This document shows positions 2,118 to 60,549 of a stretch of 64,000 bases of DNA, one piece after another. Under the pieces are notes generated by a model, which was given only the letters and a program-made list of their open reading frames with translations, had not been told where the DNA came from and made no database searches. The first letter of the stretch is position 1. Each line of letters starts with the position of its first letter. Where the stretch lies: positions 1,208 to 65,207 of the forward strand of contig DAOTVT010000071.1 in assembly GCA_034436295.1 (NCBI GenBank). Direction: 5' to 3'. The position numbers were made by a program, and so were the translations under genes. This DNA is from Anaerolineae bacterium (GTDB lineage: Bacteria > Chloroflexota > Anaerolineae > DTLA01).

Positions 2118-5100
2118 CTACCCTTCTATCCTCAGCAACCCCAAGACCAGGGGTTCGCCGTCCAGGTTGTGCTCCTGCAGGTGGGCGCCCTGTGGGGCGT
2201 CGCCCTCTGCCAGTTCGTCGGCCAGCGTCTCCTGCCGGATGTAGTCGCCGAACTCCGCGAACACCGCCTGCAGCCCCGCGCCGCAGCGGTAGAAAACCCG
2301 AATGTGGTCCTCAATGCGGAAGCCGGCGTCCTTGCGCTGCGTCTGGATGCGGCGCACGACTTCTCGCGCCATTCCTTCGCGCACCAGCGCCTCGGTGAGG
2401 GCCGTGCTCACTGCCACCACCAGGCCGTTCTCCTCGGCGACCGAGAAGCCTTCCTTGCTGTGGACGCGCACCTCCACTTCCTCAGGGAGGAGTTCCACCT
2501 CCTCGCCGTCCACCGAGACGCGCACGCTTCTGCCCGCCTGCAATTCGCGGGCCAGGTGGGCCGCAGGCAGCGCCGCGACCGCCGCGCGGAGTTTCGGGAA
2601 CCGCGCACCGTGCTTCTTGCCCAACACGTTGGGAAGCAGGCCGATCTCGTAGCGCACCAGGTCGTCGGCCTGGGCCACGACCTCCATCGCCTTGACGTTC
2701 AGTTCGTCGGTGATGACCGCCGCCATCCGCTCCACGATGGCCCGTGCGTCGTCATCTCTGGGCTTCACGATGACCTTCGCCAGCGGCTGGCGCACCTTGA
2801 GGTTCGCGGCGTTGCGGGCCGCGTGCCCCAGGCTCACCACCTGCCGCACCAATTGTACATCGGCCACCAGGGTGTTGTCAATTGCGGCGCGGTCGGCGAC
2901 GGGGAAGTCGCACAGGTGCACGCTCAACGGCGCGTTGGGGTCCACGCTCCGCACCAGGTTCTGGTACATCTCCTCGGACAGGAACGGCGTGAAGGGGGCC
3001 ATCAACTTGGCCAGGGTTACCAGGCACTCGTAGAGCGTGAGGTAGGCCGCGACCTTGTCCGTGTCCTCGCCGCTCTTCCAGAATCGGCGGCGGCTACGGC
3101 GGACGTACCAGTTGCTCAGCCCGTCCACGAATGCCTCAATGGCGCGGGTGGCGCCCGTTACGTCGTATGCGTTCAGGGACGCATCCACTCGCTCCACGAG
3201 CAGGTTCAACTCGGCCAGCACCCAGCGGTCCAGTTCCGACCGCTTGTCCAGCGGCATGGTGTGCTCCATCGGGTTGAAGCGGTCAATGCGTGCGTAGGTT
3301 ACGAAGAACGAGTAGGTGTTCCACACCGTGAGCAGGAAGCGGCGCAGGGTCTCGCGCACCAGTTCATTGCCGAAGCGGCGCGGATACCAGGGGGCCGCCA
3401 CCGAGTAGGTGTACCAGCGCAGCGCGTCGGCCCCTTGCTCGTTGAGGATGGGCCACGGGTCCACCACGTTGCCCACGTGCTTGCTCATCTTGGCGCCCTT
3501 CTCGTCGGTGCCGAACTCGGTAACCAGGCAGTTCTTGAACGCCGGGCTGTTGAACAACATGGTGGCCACGGCGTGGAGCGTGTAGAACCAGCCGCGGGTC
3601 TGGTCAATGGCCTCGCAAATGAAGTCGGCCGGGAACTGCTCCTTGAAGATATCCTGGTTCTCAAACGGGTAGTGCCATTGGGCGACGGGCATGGAGCCGG
3701 AGTCAAACCAGGCGTCGGCGACCTCGGGGATGCGGCGCATTTGCCCGCCGCACTCGGGGCACTTGAGGACGACGGCGTCCACGAACGGGCGGTGCGGGTC
3801 CAGGTCCGACAGGTCGCGCCCGGCCATCTGCCCCAACTCGGCCAGACTGCCGACGCAGATGCGGTGGCCGCAGTCCTGGCATTCCCAGATGGGCAGGGGC
3901 GTGCCCCAATAGCGCTCGCGGCCCAGCGCCCAGTCCACATTGGTCTCCAGCCAGTTGCCGAAGCGCCCGTGCTTGATGTGCTCGGGGTACCAGTTGATCT
4001 GCTCGTTGGTCGCCAGCATCTGGTCGCGGACCTTGGTGGTCTCAATGTACCAGGTGGTCTTGGCGTAGTAGAGCAGGGGCTGGTGGCAGCGCCAGCAGAA
4101 GGGATACGAGTGCTCGTACTTGGCCGCGCGGTACAGCAGGCCGCGGGTCTTCAGGTCGTCGGTGATGAGCGGGTCGGCGTCCTTGACGAACATGCCGCGC
4201 CAGGGCGTTACCTCGTTCACGAAGCGCCCGCGCAGGTCCACCGTCATGAGCACGGGCAGGTTGTACTCCTTGCCCACGTCCAGGTCGTCGGCCCCGAAGG
4301 CCGGCGCGATGTGGACGATGCCTGTGCCCTCCTCGGTGTTCACGAAGTCCGCGCCCACCACGTAGGCGTAGTCCTTGTCCACGGGCAGGAAGGTGTAGAG
4401 GGGGCGGTAGTGCTTGCCGATGAGTTCCTTCGCCTTCACCGAACGCAGGACCTGATACTCGCCGCGCAGGGCGTATTCCAGCAGCGCCTTGGCGAGGATG
4501 AGTTTGTCGTCGCCCTGCTGCACCAGGACGTACTCCACATGCGGGTGCACCGCCAACGCCACGTTCCCAGGGAGCGTCCACGGCGTCGTCGTCCACACCA
4601 GGAAATACGTCCCCGGCTCATCGCGCAGGGGGAACTTGACGAATACCGACGGGTCCTGCACGTCGCGGTAGCCCTGGGAGACCTCGTGGCTGGAGAGGGA
4701 CGTGCCGCAGCGAGCGCAGTAGGGCACGACCTTGTACCCCTGGTAGATGAGCCCCTTGTCCCAGAGTTGCTTGAGAATCCACCAGAGCGATTCCACATAC
4801 TCGGTCTTGTAGGTGATGTAGGCGTTCTCCAGGTCAATCCAGAACGCGATGCGCTCCGTCAGTTGCTCCCACTCTTTCACGTAGCGCCACACGCTCTCGC
4901 GGCACTTCTCGTTGAACGCCTCCACGCCATAGGCTTCAATCTCGGCCTTGCTGTTGATCCTGAGTTCCTTCTCCACTTCCAGTTCAACGGGAAGGCCCTG
5001 GGTGTCCCATCCGCCCTTGCGCAGGACGTAGTATCCCTTCATGGTGCGGTAGCGCGGGAAGAGGTCCTTGAGGACGCGCGGCAGGACGTGCCCGGCGTGC

Positions 5101-5261
5101 GGACGGCCGTTGGCCGTGGGCGGGCCTTCGTAGAAGACCCAACGCGGGGCGTCCTTGCGCAGTTCCAGGCTCTTGGCGAAGACGTTGTGCGCCCGCCAGA
5201 ACTCCAAGATGCCCTCTTCCATCTTCGGGAAGTTGACCTGTGGCGAAACCTCACGAAACAT
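2118..5261 (-). CDS. ileS: isoleucine--tRNA ligase
   Basis: 1047 aa with class I aaRS signatures (PPTANGRPHAGH, GWDTQGLPVE, KMSKHVGN) and typical IleS architecture and length. ATG at 5261 is preceded by a GGAGGGG RBS. Confidence 0.95.
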   Translation of the reverse strand: MFREVSPQVNFPKMEEGILEFWRAHNVFAKSLELRKDAPRWVFYEGPPTANGRPHAGHVLPRVLKDLFPRYRTMKGYYVLRKGGWDTQGLPVELEVEKELRINSKAEIEAYGVEAFNEKCRESVWRYVKEWEQLTERIAFWIDLENAYITYKTEYVESLWWILKQLWDKGLIYQGYKVVPYCARCGTSLSSHEVSQGYRDVQDPSVFVKFPLRDEPGTYFLVWTTTPWTLPGNVALAVHPHVEYVLVQQGDDKLILAKALLEYALRGEYQVLRSVKAKELIGKHYRPLYTFLPVDKDYAYVVGADFVNTEEGTGIVHIAPAFGADDLDVGKEYNLPVLMTVDLRGRFVNEVTPWRGMFVKDADPLITDDLKTRGLLYRAAKYEHSYPFCWRCHQPLLYYAKTTWYIETTKVRDQMLATNEQINWYPEHIKHGRFGNWLETNVDWALGRERYWGTPLPIWECQDCGHRICVGSLAELGQMAGRDLSDLDPHRPFVDAVVLKCPECGGQMRRIPEVADAWFDSGSMPVAQWHYPFENQDIFKEQFPADFICEAIDQTRGWFYTLHAVATMLFNSPAFKNCLVTEFGTDEKGAKMSKHVGNVVDPWPILNEQGADALRWYTYSVAAPWYPRRFGNELVRETLRRFLLTVWNTYSFFVTYARIDRFNPMEHTMPLDKRSELDRWVLAELNLLVERVDASLNAYDVTGATRAIEAFVDGLSNWYVRRSRRRFWKSGEDTDKVAAYLTLYECLVTLAKLMAPFTPFLSEEMYQNLVRSVDPNAPLSVHLCDFPVADRAAIDNTLVADVQLVRQVVSLGHAARNAANLKVRQPLAKVIVKPRDDDARAIVERMAAVITDELNVKAMEVVAQADDLVRYEIGLLPNVLGKKHGARFPKLRAAVAALPAAHLARELQAGRSVRVSVDGEEVELLPEEVEVRVHSKEGFSVAEENGLVVAVSTALTEALVREGMAREVVRRIQTQRKDAGFRIEDHIRVFYRCGAGLQAVFAEFGDYIRQETLADELAEGDAPQGAHLQEHNLDGEPLVLGLLRIEG

Positions 5262-5662
5262 GCGACCCCTCCGAGAAAGCCTTTAGCCGTTGGCCGATAG
5301 CCTCTAGCGAGCAGCGGTCAGCGGTCGGCGGACACGGGATTGCCTCGGCGTGCCGACGGCAGACCGCAGTATGCGAACCGCTGCAACAAAAAACTCCCGC
5401 CCCATAGGGACGAGAGCGATCTCCCGCGGTACCACCCTGCTTGACAGGCGAGCCTGTCCACTCTGTGGGTACGTGTTCATACCCCCGCCGCTGTAACGGG
5501 CGCGCCCCGGCCAAGTCTACTGGGAGTTGCCTCCGTTCGGTTGGCGGCTCCGGAAGGATTTTCGTCGGGGTTCGCGCATCCGGCTCCCACCGGCCCCGGA
5601 CTCGCTGGGCGTCTCCGCCCGACTACTCGTTTCCATCACAGCCTTTGGTTGGCGTATTCGGT
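5262..5662 (-). promoter_or_regulatory. T-box riboswitch leader of ileS
   Basis: On the minus-strand transcript: stem-III hairpin GACAGGCUCGCCUGUC followed by the canonical T-box sequence AAGCAGGGUGGUACCGCGGGAG (plus-strand reverse complement at about 5422..5443). This is followed by a 10-bp hairpin (CUCUCGUCCC/GGGGCGGGAG) and a U6 tract ending about 30 nt before the ileS ATG. A candidate Ile specifier (AUC) lies within GAAAAUCC; specifier assignment is tentative. Confidence 0.7.
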
Positions 5663-16005: not shown

Positions 16006-17331
16006 CTAGTGCGTCTCGTGCGCGCCCTCTTCGGGGAAGACGGGCAGGTATTTCGCCGCCAGGTAGAAGGCCAGCACGCCGAACCCCAAGAGGGTAACGG
16101 TTACGACCAGTTCCATCCACGAGGGGCTGTAGATGTTGCCGGTGTACGAGAGCAGGCCGAGCCACGAAACGTTGAGGCGGTTGAGCGCCACGCCGAACAG
16201 AACCACGAGCCACGCCGCGCCGTACAGCACCTTCGGGTTGCGGCGCAGCGATGGCACGGCGAACAGGATCATGGGGGCGATCACGCCCAACGCCATCTCC
16301 ACCCAGAACGTCGCGGCCTGCAGCGTCGGCTCAAAGGCGCGGGGCCACGCGCCGCGCGCCGTGATGTCCACAAACCGCGCCGCCAGGTACACCGCCAGGA
16401 CTACCGAGGCAATCTGTCCCAGTTCGGCCAGCAGGTGCTGCTCCAGTCCGCGCTTGAAGGCGCGGGAACTCAGGTTGGACTCCACGATGGTCATGGCGAA
16501 CCCGACCGCCACCGCCGACAGCCAGAAGAAGACCGGCAGGTACAGCGAGTACCACAGCGGGTGGAGTTTCTGCGGGACGATGACCCACAGGGAGCCGAGC
16601 GACGACTGGTGGAGCGTGGACAGCACCACGCCCAGGATGATGAACACGATGGACACTTTCTTGAGCCAGCGATAGAGGGGCACGGTGGGCAAGCGTCGGG
16701 TAACGGCCTCAATCTGGTTCACGCGCTCCAGGATGACGGGCAGGAACTCCACGAACAGGACGACGGTGTACGTGGCGACGCAGATGCCCACTTCCCAGAG
16801 CACCGAGTGGTACTGCCAGTGCACCAGAGGCCGCCAGACGTTGTAGGGCCGGCCCAAGTCTACCAGGAGCGCGGCGATGACCAGCAGGTAGCCCAGGAAG
16901 GCCGTGAGGATGGCCGGGCGCACCAGTGGCTCAAAGCGGCGGATGCGGAAGATGTGCACCGTGGCGGCCATGACGAACCCGCCCGCCGCCAGCGCCACGC
17001 CGCTCATCACGTCAAACCCGATCCAGAACCCCAGCGCGAAACGGTCGCTGAGGTTGGTTACGGCGCCGAGGCCGAACATGAACCGCACCAGGATGATGGC
17101 GGTGCCGGTGGCCATGACGCCGATGAGCGCCAGGTCGCGCAGCACCTTCCAGGGCGAGCGCACGCGGGGCACCGTGATGACGATGCGCTCGGCAGCGGCG
17201 GTGGCTGCGCCCTGGGAACGCCCTGCCAGGCGCAGGGCCAGGAACCGCGCGCCGACGAGGAACGCCACCGGAATGCCGATGCTCAACGCGGCCACGATCC
17301 AGAACGCGGGGTAGGCAACGATTTCGCCCAT
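16006..17331 (-). CDS. NrfD/PsrC-family quinol-interacting membrane subunit
   Basis: 441 aa with ~10 TM helices and the NrfD/polysulfide-reductase-type fold; directly downstream of the FeS subunit. Confidence 0.8.
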   Translation of the reverse strand: MGEIVAYPAFWIVAALSIGIPVAFLVGARFLALRLAGRSQGAATAAAERIVITVPRVRSPWKVLRDLALIGVMATGTAIILVRFMFGLGAVTNLSDRFALGFWIGFDVMSGVALAAGGFVMAATVHIFRIRRFEPLVRPAILTAFLGYLLVIAALLVDLGRPYNVWRPLVHWQYHSVLWEVGICVATYTVVLFVEFLPVILERVNQIEAVTRRLPTVPLYRWLKKVSIVFIILGVVLSTLHQSSLGSLWVIVPQKLHPLWYSLYLPVFFWLSAVAVGFAMTIVESNLSSRAFKRGLEQHLLAELGQIASVVLAVYLAARFVDITARGAWPRAFEPTLQAATFWVEMALGVIAPMILFAVPSLRRNPKVLYGAAWLVVLFGVALNRLNVSWLGLLSYTGNIYSPSWMELVVTVTLLGFGVLAFYLAAKYLPVFPEEGAHETH

Positions 17332-17334
17332 GGG

Positions 17335-18266
17335 CTACTCCTCCTTGTCCGGGGCATCGGTCGCGGCGTCGGCTTCCACGGGCACGGCAACCGCGGGCTT
17401 CCGATGGGTGTAGAGCGCCGTGCCGGTCATGAACGCGGCCATGCCGAAGATCACGTAGGGGAGTTTGTACAGAATCTTCTCGGTCTGCTTGGGCGGCGCA
17501 ACCAACGGCAGATTCGCCGGAAAGCCGAGCCGATCAAAGGGCACGTCGGAGAGGTAGAGCACCGAGGTGCCACCGACCTCGGATTCTCCGAAGACGTGAT
17601 CCACATAGCGGTCGGGGTGCGAAGCGATGCGGGCATGGGCCTGGGCCAGCAGGTCGTCGCGCCTGCCGAAGCGGATAGCGCCCGTGGGGCAGGCCGCCAC
17701 GCAGGCAGGCTCCTCGCCCTCCTTGAGCCGCTCGTAGCACATCCAGCACTTGTTGATGGTGGGCGTGATGCTGTTGTCCCAGTTGAAGCGCGGGATGGCG
17801 AACGGGCAGGCGACCTCGCAGTAGCGGCATCCCAGGCAGCGGCTGGCGCGGTAGATGACGGGGCCTTCGCCGCTGCTGTGCATGGCGGCGGCAGGACAGG
17901 CCGACACGCACGCGGCTTCCAGGCAGTGCATGCACTGTCGCTTGACATAACGGGTAACGATCTCCCCGCGCAGGTTGGCCACCTGGAACGCCTCCACGAA
18001 GGTGTAGGTGTCGGCTTCCAGGGCGGCGGGCACCTTCCCCGGTATCTGCGGCAGGCCGTTGGCTTCCTTGCACGCCAGCGCGCACGAGTTACAGCCGGTG
18101 CAGCGGGTGAGGTCAATCAGCATGCCCCAGGTGGGGCCTGCGGGCGCTTCGGCGGCCAGCGCGGTGGTCTCGGGCAGCAAGGACGCCGCCGCAGCCGCAG
18201 CCGCGCCCAACCCCAGACTCTTCAGAAAGTCGCGGCGGGAGATTCGGGCTTTGTCTAGATCGTCCA
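17335..18266 (-). CDS. 4Fe-4S ferredoxin-type subunit (NrfC/HybA-like) with Tat signal
   Basis: Starts MDDLDKARISRRDFLKSLG (twin-arginine motif). Contains multiple CxxCxxCxxxCP ferredoxin motifs (CTGCNSCALAC, CMHCLEAACVSACP, CLGCRYCEVACP, CWMC...CVAACP). The 5' part of the longer ORF is antisense noise. Confidence 0.8.
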
Positions 18267-19187
18267 TGGCTTGCCTCTCCTCTGGGCAATGTAGCCAATC
18301 AGCAGGATGGCAACGACACCCAGTACCCCGCCGATGCCCAGGCCCACGCCCAGCGTTACAATCGCTAGGTTGCGCAGGGTGCCGTTGGCGCGCTCCGCGG
18401 CCTCCAGTTGGTCGGCCAGGACTTTGGCGGGATCGGCCTGGGCCGCCGTGCCCGACGTGGTGGGCACGGTGCCTTTGGCATGGCAGCCGACGCAGGATTC
18501 GGCCGGCGGGGCGAAACTGTGGTCGGGCGCGTTGCCCCCGCCTTTGGTGCTCACCAGGCTCACCCCTGCCTCGCGCGAGCGGCCGACGGGGACGTGGCAG
18601 ACCGTGCACGCAATGCCCAGGCTGTCGTGCTCGGTGTGGGGGAACGATTCCAGTTTGGCGCGGTGGCACGACGTGCAGAGTTGCTCTGCCGGCAGCCGCA
18701 GGGCCTGCGAATGGGCGTTGTGGCACCCGATGCACTGGACGTTCATCTGGGCATGGGGCGTGGTTTCCCACTGGTCGTAGGTCTTCGCGTGGCACTCCTG
18801 GCACGCGGCGGAGTCGGTGGGAAGTTTCATCAACGCGCTGCGCGGGTGGCCCTCCACATAGGGCCCGTGGCAGGCTTCGCACTCCACGTCTTTGTAAGCG
18901 CACGTGCCGTCGGATGCGTTGAAGGCGGTGGTGTGGCACCGCAGGCAGGCGCGGTCAGCATCGGGCGGGACGGACGACGTGGCCTTGGCGTGGGTAGAGT
19001 TCTGCCAGGCTCGCGCCTCGGCCGAGTGACATGCGGCGCACTGGTCGGGCCCCTTGTACGTCGGGGCGGGTTCCTGGGCCAGCGCCGCCTGCGAGAGCGC
19101 CAACAGCATGGCCAGAGCAAGGACGCAGCCGACGATCAGCCCATTGAGCAGGGCATGGCTGCGGTACGGATGACAACGAGTGTTCAT
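18255..19187 (-). CDS. multiheme c-type cytochrome with C-terminal membrane anchor
   Basis: Eight CxxCH motifs (CAACH, CLRCH, CEACH, CQECH, CIGCH, CTSCH, CTVCH, CVGCH), an N-terminal signal peptide and a C-terminal TM helix; stop overlaps the FeS gene start. Confidence 0.8.
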   Translation of the reverse strand: MNTRCHPYRSHALLNGLIVGCVLALAMLLALSQAALAQEPAPTYKGPDQCAACHSAEARAWQNSTHAKATSSVPPDADRACLRCHTTAFNASDGTCAYKDVECEACHGPYVEGHPRSALMKLPTDSAACQECHAKTYDQWETTPHAQMNVQCIGCHNAHSQALRLPAEQLCTSCHRAKLESFPHTEHDSLGIACTVCHVPVGRSREAGVSLVSTKGGGNAPDHSFAPPAESCVGCHAKGTVPTTSGTAAQADPAKVLADQLEAAERANGTLRNLAIVTLGVGLGIGGVLGVVAILLIGYIAQRRGKPWTI

Positions 19188-19258
19188 GCAATTCCTCCAT
19201 GTGCAGAATGTAGTGGGTGAGGCCCTTCGCGCTCAAGACCTCGCGGCGCGACTCCCGA

Positions 19259-25908: not shown

Positions 25909-26009
25909 CGGGCGGCCGAGTTTCTGACCCGCTGCGCGCGGCCTACTCCACCGCTCGGGCGTTTGACGTTTCCCGTCGGGTTCGCTAGACTTGGCGCAGG
26001 AGGTAGGCG

Positions 26010-26546
26010 ATGGAATTGCCTGCGTACATGCGCATCCCCTCCCGTTTCGGGGCGCTGGGCCTGGTGTGGTTGGGCACTCCGAATGGCCCTCGCGTCCTCC
26101 GCATCTACCTGCCCAACGAATTGCCCCGCGGATTGCCGGCCGTCAAGGCCCCATCCGATTCCCCCATTGCGGAACTGGCCGCTCGCATAAAGGCGTATTT
26201 GGCGGGCGAGCCGGTCGTCTTTGACCTGAGCCTGCTCCTTTTGGAGCAGTGCGCGGAGTTCCAGCGCAAGGTGCTGGTGGCCGAGTGCGGCATTCCGCGC
26301 GGGTGGGTAAGCACCTACGCCCGCATCGCCGCGCATCTGCAAGCGCCACGGGCGGAGCGGGCGGTTGGCACGGCCCTGGCCCGCAATCCCTTTCCCATCG
26401 TCATCCCCTGCCACCGCGCCGTGCGCTCCGACGGGAGCCTGGGCGGCTACCGCGGCGGCCTGCCCATGAAGCGGGCGTTGTTGGAGATGGAGGGCGTGCC
26501 TTTTGAGGACGGGGGGCGCGTGCGGATGGACAAGGTCTGGTACTAG
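26010..26546 (+). CDS. ogt: methylated-DNA--protein-cysteine methyltransferase
   Basis: Active-site PCHRAV motif and a GGYRGG helix region in the C-terminal domain. Confidence 0.8.
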   Translation: MELPAYMRIPSRFGALGLVWLGTPNGPRVLRIYLPNELPRGLPAVKAPSDSPIAELAARIKAYLAGEPVVFDLSLLLLEQCAEFQRKVLVAECGIPRGWVSTYARIAAHLQAPRAERAVGTALARNPFPIVIPCHRAVRSDGSLGGYRGGLPMKRALLEMEGVPFEDGGRVRMDKVWY

Positions 26547-39514: not shown

Positions 39515-40159
39515 CTACCGCAGTTGTTTCCACACTTCCTGGACGAACAGGGGTTCGGGGTAGGCGCCCTCCACCGCGATGGTCTCGTTGATGACGGAGC
39601 GCGGCACGCCCTGCACCTGGTACTTGATGGCCAGGTCGGGGAACTCCATCGCCTCCACCATGTCGGCGCGGACGCGGTCGCTCTCCAGCGCCATCTGGAA
39701 CGCGAGCAGCACGGCTCGCGGGCAGTACGGTCAGGTGGGGGTTACGAACACCTGGATGTGCAGGTCTTGCTTCAGTTCCGCCAGGGCCTTCTTGGTGGCG
39801 TCCTTCAGCCCGCTCTCGCGCCGCGATACCATCATGATGCTTTCCACCAGCGACGAGAACTCGTACCCCGACGGGATGCCGTAGAAGCGGATGCCGTAGT
39901 CCTTCTCGCCGATGACCGCGATGGCGGGGATTCGCGCGATGTTGTACGGCGCGATCTTGTCCTTGTCGGCGACGAAGTCGTACACCTCAGCGGTGATCTT
40001 GTCCGAGAGTTCGGCCAGTTCCTCCACGATCTCGCGGGTTTCCTTGCAGAAGTCGCATTCAAAGTCCTGGGTTACCATGATGAGTTTCACGGGATGTACC
40101 AGTTTGGCCGCGAACTCCTTTTGCAGGTACTCGCGGTCTTTGGGTTGAATCATCGGCAT
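39515..40159 (-). CDS. thioredoxin-fold (glutaredoxin-like, two-domain) candidate selenoprotein with in-frame UGA at 39731..39733
   Basis: Track ORFs 39731..40159 and 39515..39712 are in the same frame, separated only by TGA. Reading through gives ...HIQVFVTPT-U-PYCPRAVLLA..., i.e. UxxC at the CxxC position of the second Trx-like half. The first half has CDFC. GAGGAGGG RBS sits before the ATG at 40159. A 7-bp hairpin (CGCGAGC-CGUGCU-GCUCGCG) lies 10 nt downstream of the UGA. Confidence 0.6.
39701..39720 (-). promoter_or_regulatory. candidate bacterial SECIS hairpin
   Basis: Perfect 7-bp stem with a 6-nt loop starting 10 nt 3' of the in-frame UGA. Confidence 0.35.
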
Positions 40160-56365: not shown

Positions 56366-56583
56366 CGCGCGTGGTTCCTGTGCTCAGCAGCAGGCAGGTG
56401 GTGAAGGCGTTTGAGCGACTTGGGTCGGCTGACGTAGCGACGGATCCAGGAAGGCAAGCATCATCCGCGCGTCGGGTTCGGAAGGAGGTGGTGCGCGGGA
56501 TTACGCAAACGGCGGGTTCATCGGGGAGAGTAGCGCCTGGACTGGGCGGTGAGGGCCACTTCATGAGCCGCCTGCCCAGTTGA
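56362..56583 (+). pseudogene. probable decayed HicA-family toxin gene
   Basis: First ~20 codons (PVLSSRQVVKAFERLG) match HicA. The continuation lacks the GSH/VPxH motifs, and a GKHH-like fragment appears only in the +1 frame. The 3' end overlaps the glmS ribozyme P1. Confidence 0.35.
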
Positions 56584-56770
56584 CGAGGACGGAGGTTCCT
56601 CACCTCGCGGTGAGGCTAACCGGCACGCGCCGGGAAAATCGGAAGATCGGCGGAAGCCTCCGGGGGCGATCCCGCCCCCACAACTCCCCTCCAAAACGAG
56701 CGCGTCCCCAAATCCGCGCGGGCGACCGCCGGGACAAAGGGCCGCGCAGGGATCGGGCGAGACTCATCGT
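56530..56770 (+). ncRNA. glmS ribozyme (glucosamine-6-phosphate-activated)
   Basis: Cleavage-site sequence UAGCGCC at 56531-56537. P1 is CUGGGCGG...CCGCCUGCCCAG. Core GACGAGGACGGAGGUU and AUCGGCGGAAGCCUCCGGGGGCGA match the conserved GACGAGGAUGGAGGUU and UCGGCGGAUGCCUCCCGG elements. Located upstream of glmS. Confidence 0.6.
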
Positions 56771-56989: not shown

Positions 56990-58825
56990 ATGTGCGGGAT
57001 TGTGGGATACATCGGCCCCCGCGACGCGACGCAAATCATCATGGACGGCCTGCGCCGTCTGGAGTACCGCGGCTACGACTCGGCCGGCATCGCCGTGCTA
57101 CAGGAGGGGCGCCTGGTCGTCCGCCGCGACGCCGGCAAACTGGCCAACCTCGCCGCCATCCTGGAGCGCGAGCCGGTGCACGGCCCCGTCGGCATCGGCC
57201 ACACGCGCTGGGCCACCCACGGCCGGCCCAGCCAGCGCAACGCCCATCCCCACACCGATTGCACGGGCGAGATCGTGGTCATCCACAACGGCATCGTGGA
57301 GAACTTCATGGCGTTGAAGGCGGAACTGCAGGCCGAAGGGCACCGATTCCGCTCGGATACCGACACGGAAGTAATCGTGCATCTTGTGGAGAAGTACTAC
57401 CAGGGCGACATCGCCGAGGCGGCGCGGGCGGCCTTCCAGCGGCTGCGCGGCGCCCACGCCATTGTCGTCATGACGTCGCGCGAACCCGACCGACTTGTGG
57501 CGACGCGCATCGGCAACGCGGGAGGCGTAACGGTGGGCCTGGGCGACGACGAGATGTTCCTGGCCTCGGATATCCCTGCGATTCTGGAGCACACGCGCCG
57601 CATGGTCTTTCTGGAAGACCGCGAGATGGCCGTCGTAACGCGCAGCGGCGCGCAGTACTACCGCCTGACGGGCGAGCCGGTGTCCAAGACGCCCCACACC
57701 GTGCCCTACGATCCGGTGGCGGCGGCCAAGGGCGAGTACAAGCACTTTATGCAGAAGGAAATCTACGAGCAGCCCCGCGCCGTAACCGACACCATTCGCG
57801 GGCGCATGGACTTTGAGACCGGCGAGGCGATCCTGGCGGACGTAGGCATCGGGGAGGACGAGGCGCGCGCCCTGGATCGGGTCGTCATCGTGGCGTGCGG
57901 CACGTCGGCCTACGCGGGCCTGGTGGGCAAGTTCATGCTGGAATCGCTGGCGGGCCTGCCGGTGGAGGTGGACTACGGCTCCGAGTTTCGCTACCGCGAC
58001 CCTCACATCACCCCGCGGACGCTGGTGGTGGCCATCACCCAGTCGGGCGAGACGGTGGACACGCTGGCGGCCATGGACGAGGCGCGGCGCAAGGGGGCCA
58101 GGATCGTGAGCATCGTCAACGCGGTGGGGAGCATGGCAGCGCGCGTGTCCGACGGCGTTATCTACATGCAGGCAGGCCCCGAAATCGGCGTGGCATCCAC
58201 TAAGGCGTTCACCACATCGCTGGTGGATTTGTACCTGCTGGGCACGTACCTGGGGCAGAAGCGCGGGCGGCTGGACAGGGAGCGGTCGCTGGCGCTGGCC
58301 CAGGATTTGGCCGAACTGCCCAATCTGATGGGGAGCGTGCTGGCCAACGGCCACGAGTACGAGGCGCTGGCGCAGTTGTACTACGAGAAGGCCGACTTCC
58401 TGTACCTGGGGCGGGGCATCAACTACCCCATCGCCCTAGAGGGCGCGCTGAAACTCAAGGAAATCTCGTACATCCACGCCGAAGGCTATCCGGCGGGCGA
58501 GATGAAGCATGGTCCCATCGCCCTGATTGACGACCACATGCCGGTCATGATCATCGCCATCCGCGACCGCGTGTACGAGAAGATCATGGGCAACGTGGAG
58601 GAGGTCAAGGCGCGCAACGGGATCGTGCTGGCGCTGGGCACGCAGGGCGACGCGCACCTGGCCGAGAAGGCCGATCATGTGATTTATGTGCCCCCGCTGC
58701 CGGAACTCCTGTCGCCGGTGGTTACGGTCATCCCGCTGCAACTGTTCGCGTACCACATGGCGGTGCGCCGCGGGTGCGATGTGGATCAGCCGCGCAACCT
58801 GGCGAAGAGCGTAACGGTGGAGTGA
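56990..58825 (+). CDS. glmS: glutamine--fructose-6-phosphate aminotransferase (isomerizing)
   Basis: N-terminal MCGIVGY Ntn-amidotransferase start, two SIS domains, 611 aa. Confidence 0.95.
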   Translation: MCGIVGYIGPRDATQIIMDGLRRLEYRGYDSAGIAVLQEGRLVVRRDAGKLANLAAILEREPVHGPVGIGHTRWATHGRPSQRNAHPHTDCTGEIVVIHNGIVENFMALKAELQAEGHRFRSDTDTEVIVHLVEKYYQGDIAEAARAAFQRLRGAHAIVVMTSREPDRLVATRIGNAGGVTVGLGDDEMFLASDIPAILEHTRRMVFLEDREMAVVTRSGAQYYRLTGEPVSKTPHTVPYDPVAAAKGEYKHFMQKEIYEQPRAVTDTIRGRMDFETGEAILADVGIGEDEARALDRVVIVACGTSAYAGLVGKFMLESLAGLPVEVDYGSEFRYRDPHITPRTLVVAITQSGETVDTLAAMDEARRKGARIVSIVNAVGSMAARVSDGVIYMQAGPEIGVASTKAFTTSLVDLYLLGTYLGQKRGRLDRERSLALAQDLAELPNLMGSVLANGHEYEALAQLYYEKADFLYLGRGINYPIALEGALKLKEISYIHAEGYPAGEMKHGPIALIDDHMPVMIIAIRDRVYEKIMGNVEEVKARNGIVLALGTQGDAHLAEKADHVIYVPPLPELLSPVVTVIPLQLFAYHMAVRRGCDVDQPRNLAKSVTVE

Positions 58826-58835
58826 TGCGCCCATC

Positions 58836-59010
58836 GGGTGGGGCCCCTCACCCTGGCCCTCTCCCCGCAAGGCGGGGCGAGGGGATTGCCCCCCTCACCC
58901 TAGCCCTCTCCCCGCGAGCGGGGCGAGGGGATTGCCCCCCTCACCCTAGCCCTCTCCCCGCAAGGTGGGGCGAGGGGATTGCACTACGGTTCTGGCCGCG
59001 AGCGGGGCGA
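58836..59010. repeat. four tandem units of dispersed repeat family A
   Basis: CCCCTCACCCTNGCCCTCTCCCCGCNAGNGGGGCGAGGGGATTGC x4, same family as 5697..5800. Confidence 0.85.
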
Positions 59011-59100
59011 GGGGACGGGCTTCGCTTTGGCAATACCCAGGGGCTGGCATATACTGTATCCATCGTGCGTTCTCTCACAAGGCAGACTTCGGGAGGCAAA

Positions 59101-59538
59101 ATGACGAACAATGCAGACGCCGTGGTGGAACATGCCCGACAGGTTTTTCTCTCGTGCCATCACTGATCCGAGACGATTGTGATCGCCGTGGGCGATTACT
59201 ACTTCGGCAAGGCGCCCGAGATTCTCATCCGCGCCGCGTGTCCGCTGGCCGGCGGCGCGGGGTGCTCGTACCAGGAAATGTGCGGGCTGCTCAGCGGCGG
59301 GCTGATGGTGATGGGCGCGCTGCTGGGCCGCGTCTCCATCTCGGAGAGCGACGAGGCGGTGCAGGCGCTGGGCCGCGAGTTTCGGGAGCGGTTTCGCGCG
59401 CTGGCCGGACACACGCAATGCCAGGCCATCCGCGACAGCCTTCCGGAAAAGGACAAGCGGTGCGAGCCGATTGTCGTGGGCACGGTGCGCATCCTGTTGG
59501 AACTGCTGGCGACGCAGGGCGTGGCGCCCAGGGCGTGA
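59101..59538 (+). CDS. C_GCAxxG_C_C-family putative redox protein, candidate selenoprotein with in-frame UGA at 59164..59166
   Basis: ATG at 59101 preceded by GGGAGG. A 21-codon N-terminus (MTNNADAVVEHARQVFLSCHH) ends at TGA, then continues in the same frame into track ORF 59179..59538. The read-through FLSCHH-U-SETIVIAV aligns to the family motif nCAESVL with U at the conserved first Cys. Downstream CPLAGGAGC...EMCG completes the GCAxxG_C_C pattern. Total ~145 aa matches the family size. Confidence 0.6.
59179..59199 (+). promoter_or_regulatory. candidate SECIS-like hairpin
   Basis: GUGAUCGCC-GUG-GGCGAUUAC: 9-bp stem (one G.U), 12 nt 3' of the UGA. Confidence 0.3.
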
Positions 59539-59556
59539 TGCGCGACGACGCGCCGC

Positions 59557-60549
59557 CTAGCCCAGCAGTCGCCTGCGCATCCAGACGTACATCGCAGCGG
59601 GCAGCAGCACCATAAGCGCAAGGGTCAGCAGGAACGCCGGATTGTCCGTCCAGGGGGCAAGACCGGTGGCGACAGGCCCAAAGAAGTTCATGCCGAAGAA
59701 ACTGGCGATGAACGAGATGGGCATGAACAACGTGGTGATGAGGGTCAGGGTTTTCATCACGTCGTTCAGGCGATTGTTGACGACGGACAGGTAGGTATCC
59801 AGCACGCCGCTGACCAGGTCGCGCATGGATTCGTTGATGTCGTGCAGGCGCACCAGGTGGTCGTACACGTCGCGGAAGTAGAGGCGGCCGCGGGCATCTA
59901 CCACCTCGTAGTCGTCGCGGGCCAGTTTGTTGAGCACCTCGCGCTGGGGCGCGATGATGCGTCGCAGGTTGAGGAGCGCCCTCTTGAGCGCCAGGAGCCG
60001 CTCCAGCGTGGCCGTGCGCAGCGACCCCGCCAGCACCTGGTCTTCCAGTTGGTCTATGGCGACGTCAATCTCCTCAAAGACCGGCATGTAGCCCGCGACG
60101 ATCTCGTCGGCGATGCGGTAGGCGAGGTAGGGGGCGCCTCGCGTCGTGTGGCGTTCGTCGCGCTGGCACGACGTCCACACGCGGTCCAGGGCCGGCACGG
60201 GCATGTCGCGATGGGTTACGACGTAGGTCTTGCCCAGGAAGACATCCACCTCTAGCGTGTCCACGTGTTCGCCGCCGTCGGTGTCAAAGGCCACAGCGTG
60301 CAGGACGATGTAGAGATAATCGCCCCAGTCATCCAGTTTGGGCACGTGGGACTCTTGCAGCGCGTCGTCCACAGCCAGCGGATCAAAGCGGAAGACGTTG
60401 CGCAGGATAGGCTCGCAGTCTTCGGGCTTTTCGCCGACGAAATCGGCCCAGAGCAGGCCGCCGCCGTCGGCGAGAATTGCGGCGAATTCCTCTGGGCGCA
60501 CGTCGGTGCGCAGTTGGCCGTCGCGCGGACGGTAGAGTGTTCGGATCAT
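59557..60549 (-). CDS. corA: magnesium/cobalt transporter CorA
   Basis: Cytoplasmic funnel domain plus two C-terminal TM helices and the GMNF signature (FGMNFF). Confidence 0.9.
   Translation of the reverse strand: MIRTLYRPRDGQLRTDVRPEEFAAILADGGGLLWADFVGEKPEDCEPILRNVFRFDPLAVDDALQESHVPKLDDWGDYLYIVLHAVAFDTDGGEHVDTLEVDVFLGKTYVVTHRDMPVPALDRVWTSCQRDERHTTRGAPYLAYRIADEIVAGYMPVFEEIDVAIDQLEDQVLAGSLRTATLERLLALKRALLNLRRIIAPQREVLNKLARDDYEVVDARGRLYFRDVYDHLVRLHDINESMRDLVSGVLDTYLSVVNNRLNDVMKTLTLITTLFMPISFIASFFGMNFFGPVATGLAPWTDNPAFLLTLALMVLLPAAMYVWMRRRLLG

Follow-up and report, generated by a model that had tools for sequence, protein, structure and literature searches.

Positions 59101 to 59538 of a 64,000-nt stretch of DNA from an Anaerolineae bacterium (contig DAOTVT010000071.1; the whole analyzed stretch is called the window) form a gene that we read, with a probability of about 0.88, as encoding a selenocysteine (Sec)-containing protein of the C-GCAxxG-C-C family, in which UGA 59164–59166 is translated as Sec. 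The UGA is conserved among homologous loci, and Sec and Cys are paired at this codon among family members. The read-through product belongs to the family by profile score, a hairpin that follows the UGA is conserved, and the fold matches that of a domain carrying an iron centre. The family has already been catalogued as a selenoprotein family, and the window gene is therefore a new member of a known family.

Gene architecture

The features of the gene, with the evidence for each, are as follows (SECIS, selenocysteine insertion sequence; bSECIS, bacterial SECIS).

59101–59538, plus strand: full coding sequence of a predicted 145-aa C-GCAxxG-C-C family selenoprotein with Sec at residue 22 (PF09719, TIGR01909, and alignments).
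59027–59055, plus strand: sigma-70-like promoter, TTGGCA-17-TATACT, 46 nt 5′ of the ATG (promoter scan).
59091–59096, plus strand: ribosome-binding site (RBS) GGGAGG, 4 nt before ATG 59101 (reading of the sequence; GGAGG-type sites in homologous loci).
59164–59166, plus strand: in-frame UGA, predicted Sec codon for residue 22 (TGA in 15 loci; TGC in the L001/P0001 clade).
59179–59199, plus strand: candidate bacterial SECIS hairpin (the bSECIS criteria given below, covariation, and invariance of the stem codons).

From ATG 59101, 21 sense codons lead to TGA 59164–59166, beyond which the frame continues to TGA 59536–59538; the listed open reading frame at 59179–59538 is in the same frame as this ATG. 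A preliminary description of the window, made from the letters alone, had laid out the RBS, the start, the 21-codon frame, the TGA, and the shared frame, and our reading of the sequence agrees with it in each of these elements. Translation through the UGA gives a product of 145 aa, ...FLSCHH-U-SETIVIAVGDYYF..., with the wider context ...ARQVFLSCHH-U-SETIVIAVGDYYFGK... at Sec22. The promoter is the sole promoter-like site in 58780–59720, where 0.1 such sites are expected by chance. It lies upstream of the long-form ATG and therefore serves the long form rather than GTG 59179.

TGA terminates approximately 17 of the window's 44 predicted genes, among them glmS and the selenoprotein gene itself. 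Thus, TGA is an ordinary stop codon in this DNA, and a reassignment of the genetic code is ruled out.

Family membership of the read-through product

We compared the read-through product, and the 119-aa fragment that starts downstream of the UGA, with two profile models of the family. Against TIGR01909, an NCBIfam model with the curated name "C-GCAxxG-C-C family (seleno)protein," the read-through product scored 49.8 bits and passed the cutoff of 47.4, whereas the fragment, at 42.2 bits, fell below it. Against PF09719 (cutoff 27), the read-through product scored 70.7 bits over profile positions 2–117 and the fragment 60.4 bits over positions 12–117. Both models therefore support the earlier proposal that a read-through protein of ~145 aa matches the family. 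The companion claim, that the fragment alone is without the N-terminal element, also holds, in that the fragment lacks the column of the first family Cys.

With P0001, the full-length Cys ortholog, as query, an exhaustive HMMER search returned 607 relatives at E ≤ 0.001. The best 150 of these 607, taken as family representatives, were aligned together with 13 close homologs (163 sequences, P0001–P0163). The column of the window TGA is Cys in 84 of the 88 full-length sequences of the aligned set, within the motif (Y/F)-H-C-(S/A)-E, as had been predicted when U was placed at the invariant first Cys. Just four columns are invariant among the 56 full-length representatives, whose mean identity is 30%: the first Cys, Cys and Gly in the core motif CGxLSG, and the third Cys; conservation of the fourth family Cys among the same representatives is at least 90%. 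The corresponding positions of the window protein are U22, C61 (in EMCGLLSGG), C107, and C121; at 145 aa, it has the four-cysteine order C...(G)C(G/A)xxG...C...C that characterizes this domain of ~120–150 aa. The GCAxxG-C-C-like core of the preliminary description stands in part: C61 of EMCGLLSGG is the conserved second Cys, but the two cysteines of ACPLAGGAGC (C47 and C55) show no family conservation.

As a separate observation, residues 10–89 of the read-through product weakly match NF045501, "HUGP/GUXX-star fusion selenoprotein" (E 0.013, 15 bits). The N-terminal part of this curated selenoprotein family, which also has U after H, may be related.

The UGA codon is conserved in homologous loci

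A collection of 5.8 billion proteins contained 13 close homologs; 12 are called as fragments of 117–125 aa (most of them 119), and a single one, P0001, is full length (149 aa) and reads FLSCHH-C-SETMV. We examined the DNA behind the homolog calls and scanned genome and metagenome collections. All close-homolog loci except those of the P0001 clade have TGA at exactly the window codon, and it is kept down to 45% identity in an Anaerolineales metagenome-assembled genome (MAG; locus L010). Five more distant truncated representatives (L018 and L021–L024, ~40–50% identity) carry it as well. In total there are 15 distinct Sec-form loci, from MAGs of Anaerolineae, Caldilineae, and other Chloroflexota and from many metagenomes, and such a recurrence of TGA at one codon is more than chance would produce.

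In each Sec locus, a leader peptide with its own start codon, and usually with a GGAGG-type site, is encoded in frame 5′ of the TGA. Synonymous changes have accumulated under the conserved leader peptide (for example, Ala GCC/GCA/GCG and Arg CGC/CGA/AGG/CGG), which indicates that the leader is translated in the long frame. The ortholog of the L001/P0001 clade, at 85% identity, is the Cys form. Its codon, at 416–418 of L001, is TGC, and the 90% cluster of P0001 holds several independent 149-aa members. The comparison of Cys and TGA among orthologs that the preliminary description had called for thus gives 15 loci with TGA and one clade with TGC. The in-frame UGA is matched to Cys in homologs, and coding conservation extends on both sides of it.

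Were the UGA a real stop, the locus would encode a 21-residue leader peptide and a separate 119-residue protein from GTG 59179. Gene callers do give the shorter product: every public copy of the window protein that was found, like the orthologs looked up, is a truncated 119-aa call (for example, MDH7490494.1, GAB4405382.1, and OGO05269.1), and no Sec machinery was seen in the 179 kb that we searched. Yet the truncated product loses an invariant Cys of the family and falls short of TIGR01909, and the leader, which has an RBS and promoter of its own, is kept in frame and conserved at the protein level. The downstream start, by comparison, is not conserved, being GTG or ATG at differing positions and lying further downstream in L018, and both parts are fused through a Cys codon in a close ortholog. 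We consider a real stop at this codon very improbable.

A different set of explanations has the UGA read by a near-cognate tRNA (Trp, Cys, or Arg), places it in a decaying pseudogene, or attributes it to a sequencing error. One locus lends them some substance: L020, a Logan contig (SRR24079444), has TGG at the codon and a frameshift further on. Moreover, no Sec machinery was found in the 179 kb searched. Nevertheless, 15 independent assemblies share the same TGA, the sequence on either side of it being under purifying selection, and neither a sequencing error nor a pseudogene can account for this.

The L020 contig is also an observation in its own right. Its TGG (Trp) follows CATCAT, and the copy may be decaying or misassembled. 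Within one close clade, the Sec codon is altered in two ways, to TGC in L001 and to TGG in L020.

A candidate SECIS hairpin follows the UGA

A perfect 9-bp hairpin, GUGAUCGCC-GUG-GGCGAUUAC, occupies 59179–59199 and starts 12 nt after the UGA, where the preliminary description had placed it. The bSECIS consensus comprises a loop of 3–9 nt with G in its two leading positions, an upper stem of 4–16 bp, a UGA-to-loop spacing of 16–37 nt, and a free energy of folding of −7.5 kcal/mol or lower (PMC13188914). With its apical GUG loop, a UGA-to-loop distance of 21 nt, and −11.7 kcal/mol, the hairpin agrees with all four elements of this consensus. At the true stop of the gene (UGA 59536–59538), the same criteria identified no SECIS-like hairpin.

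The pairing is maintained among the homologs. Across the 15 Sec loci, 95% of the stem cells are in standard pairs, compared with 26–65% when the register is slid, and the covariation score of 0.215 exceeded that of all 500 shuffles. Two stem pairs have changed at both bases and still pair: A-U is replaced by C-G in three loci, and C-G by G-U in one locus; these changes pass via amino acid replacements (Ile...Asp to Leu...Glu) with the pairing kept. RNAalifold detected no compensatory changes in the 10 closer loci, and they were seen only once the five distant loci were added. For codon usage we took the 11 closer sequences, in which ATC, GCC, and GGC of the stem are invariant (the loop codon is GTG, GTC, or GTT), whereas nearly all other invariant residues are encoded by 2–4 codons, so that codons are invariant at 3 of 4 positions in the stem versus 1 of 26 elsewhere (Fisher p = 0.004). 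On all 15 sequences, this synonymous-codon test has no power because the stem residues vary at the protein level.

Cys-form relatives provide a further comparison. In P0014 (locus L025, 58% identity), the hairpin is degraded or lost: its place is taken by GUGAUUGCC-AUA-GCUGAUCAU, which has −2.3 kcal/mol in the same fold and no G in the loop. In the very close Cys ortholog L001, the hairpin is intact, as expected for a recent change from TGA to TGC. Similar to the E. coli fdhF-type SECIS and the Zhang–Gladyshev bSECIS model, the window hairpin lies in the coding region just after the UGA and has a small loop beginning with G-U; it differs from the fdhF type in its 3-nt loop, in having no bulged U in the upper stem, and in sharing no sequence similarity. 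Conservation and covariation of the hairpin, together with its G-U loop at the spacing of a SECIS, point towards decoding that depends on SelB and so argue against near-cognate reading of the UGA.

A companion selenoprotein candidate in the window

A second candidate gene emerged when we scanned for TGAs that lie in frame between stretches of coding-like sequence.

39515–40159, minus strand: gene for a 214-aa protein disulfide oxidoreductase, the companion candidate selenoprotein (TIGR02187.2).
39733–39731, minus strand: in-frame UGA of the companion, in ...VFVTPT-U-PYCP... (scan for in-frame TGAs).
39701–39720, minus strand: SECIS-like hairpin of the companion, CGCGAGC-CGUGCU-GCUCGCG (bSECIS criteria).

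The companion read-through product scored 281.5 bits (cutoff 185) with the model TIGR02187.2, "PDO_seleno_TRX." Like that family, it carries U in place of the leading Cys of the C-terminal CPYC motif. Its hairpin starts 10 nt after the UGA, has a UGA-to-loop distance of 17 nt and a stability of −11.5 kcal/mol, and passes the bSECIS criteria. The companion, a CxxC oxidoreductase with a thioredoxin fold, is not related to the C-GCAxxG-C-C protein by fold and, probably, not by chemistry either. The preliminary description had counted two UGA events in the window, and the UGA at 39733–39731, in a curated selenoprotein family, confirms the count. A second gene of this kind in the same window also speaks against near-cognate reading, pseudogene decay, or a sequencing error at UGA 59164–59166, explanations that we hold to be extremely improbable.

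A gene with an MGMT (O6-methylguanine-DNA methyltransferase) domain at 26007–26546 (plus strand) is from a family in which Sec forms are known. It was rejected as a Sec form, as it has an ordinary PCHR cysteine.

Relation to split-Soret cytochrome c

The AlphaFold2 model (predicted local distance difference test, 95.8) has all four Cys at helix N termini. By sequence, the family profile finds PDB 1H21 at E = 0.003, aligning GGISDW-GTICGALYG...GR and the fourth Cys. This entry is the split-Soret cytochrome c of Desulfovibrio desulfuricans ATCC 27774 ("A novel iron centre..."), the N-terminal domain of which is the candidate shared domain. We also joined a split-Soret-like fragment, P0164, to the 1H21 stretch; this spliced query scored 31.2 bits against PF09719 (cutoff 27), and hhalign placed its G-Y-A-C cysteine on the family first Cys with 93% probability. 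From the fold match and the profile sequence match, the family domain is probably the iron-centre domain of split-Soret cytochrome c, and homology to 1H21 suggests that the four family residues probably bind an iron or iron–sulfur centre.

The window protein probably shares a domain with split-Soret cytochrome c but is not one. The cytochrome carries a C-terminal di-haem CXXCH domain, whereas the window protein stands alone, without CXXCH or an extra domain, and carries Sec where the first Cys would be. The longer family representatives, checked for split-Soret-like haem fusions, contained no CXXCH.

Other features of the window

The glmS gene (56990–58825, plus strand) is preceded by a glmS ribozyme at 56521–56757 (plus strand), which scores above the Rfam gathering threshold. 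The spacer that separates glmS from the selenoprotein gene's promoter is filled by three to four tandem copies (58825–59019) of a GC-rich unit of ~46 nt containing CCCTCTCCCCGC...GCGGGGCGAGGGGA, which look like intergenic repeats of the repetitive extragenic palindromic (REP) type. A T-box leader at 5403–5648 (minus strand), also above its Rfam gathering score, lies upstream of a 1055-codon minus-strand ORF at 2118–5282, which we take to be that of isoleucyl-tRNA synthetase. A gene for an NrfD-type membrane subunit and one for a multihaem cytochrome c lie near each other at 16006–19232 (minus strand) and may encode parts of a respiratory membrane complex.

Discussion

In the mechanism that we infer, a single gene for a 145-residue selenoprotein would be transcribed from its own promoter at 59027–59055. 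UGA 59164–59166 would be decoded as Sec, the hairpin at 59179–59199 acting as the SECIS element with its G-U-N loop 21 nt downstream. The hairpin would bring SelB with Sec-tRNA(Sec) to the ribosome, which would keep the UGA from being taken as a stop, and UGA 59536–59538, which is without such a hairpin, would serve as the real terminator. Sec22 would replace the first family Cys and thereby supply selenium as a cluster ligand of an iron or iron–sulfur centre, a role that we infer from the relation to split-Soret cytochrome c.

Several observations weigh against this account. Neither the window nor 115 kb of related loci (25 loci; 179 kb in total) contained selA, selB, selD, or a gene for tRNA-Sec. 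The window and loci L001–L017 yielded no tRNA in ARAGORN; Pfam scans of 30 window genes and the L017 annotation covering 47–60 kb revealed no SelA, SelB, or SelD domain; and the best match of E. coli SelA, SelB, and SelD to the 179 kb in tblastn had an E value of ~1. This absence is from a small sample of 179 kb and not from a genome. In favor of the account, both selenoproteins and tRNA-Sec are on record for Chloroflexi (PMC1794560, table 2; PMC5389517), and the companion gene, from a curated selenoprotein family, indirectly supports the presence of Sec machinery. As to the hairpin, 11% of random positions in the 66%-GC window pass the bSECIS criteria (~2–4% at the stability of this hairpin), which makes the hairpin alone weaker evidence. 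The fold of its region is not unusually stable relative to shuffled sequences (z = −0.7 and −1.55), no Rfam SECIS family was found over the site in gathering-threshold or permissive scans, and the covariation is based on few, possibly related, events. As to the iron centre, the 31.2-bit score and the hhalign placement come from the splice of P0164 with the 1H21 stretch, and the third Cys of the family was not seen aligned to 1H21. The centre of 1H21 itself is reportedly (Abreu et al., 2003) a [2Fe-2S] cluster bound by four domain cysteines.

If the 1H21 centre is a [2Fe-2S] cluster with four Cys ligands, Sec22 would be a selenium ligand and not a thiol–disulfide redox residue. We propose, tentatively and at somewhat less than an even chance, that Sec22 may be a direct selenium ligand of a [2Fe-2S]-type centre and the protein a small, stand-alone, selenium-ligated iron–sulfur protein. 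Sec22 might alternatively be a redox-active selenol that cycles via a selenenylsulfide with another Cys, in a selenoprotein otherwise as described; this is the thiol-oxidoreductase chemistry that the family name, like the preliminary description, suggests, and Sec22 would then be no metal ligand. Pfam names PF09719 "Putative redox-active protein," most bacterial selenoproteins are thiol-type oxidoreductases (PMC1976440), and the companion selenoprotein of the window is a CxxC oxidoreductase, all of which favor a selenol; by itself we find the selenol possible, with odds well short of even. The choice between metal ligand and redox selenol stands at roughly even odds. The preliminary description had placed U at a redox Cys: U does occupy the family Cys, but given a fold that matches a domain with an iron centre, the redox label may misstate the chemistry.

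The C-GCAxxG-C-C family was introduced as a "putative redox protein" of the Olavius delta-1 symbiont (Zhang and Gladyshev, 2007; PMC1976440), in a study that also gave Sec/Cys alignments and predicted SECIS elements. Two reviews list it as a selenoprotein family (PMC9312934, PMC13188914), and the second of these gives forms 1 and 2, which differ in the position of Sec. The window protein resembles the known C-GCAxxG-C-C selenoproteins in its domain, size, four-Cys signature, in-frame UGA with a downstream stem-loop, and Cys homologs; the known members are from Deltaproteobacteria or Clostridia, whereas the window clade is from Chloroflexota (Anaerolineae and Caldilineae MAGs).

Annotation of the family appears to be affected by the truncated calls. 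Of 75 truncated sequences among the 163 aligned, 51 start at P0001 residues 25–29, just after the first-Cys column, and all five such truncated representatives examined at the DNA level have TGA. This truncation pattern, present in about one-third of the aligned family sequences, suggests that selenoprotein content is probably under-counted, and the Sec form may be far more common than annotated. Two other sequences, P0049 and P0065, begin immediately past the second Cys; they might represent the other Sec position that has been published.

The family and the mechanism were both known before, and the gene leaves the understanding of Sec decoding unchanged. The link to the iron centre of split-Soret cytochrome c offers a testable idea for the role of the four Cys/Sec residues of the family, and the presence of two selenoprotein genes within 64 kb indicates that the source organism, of Anaerolineae/Caldilineae type, uses selenium.
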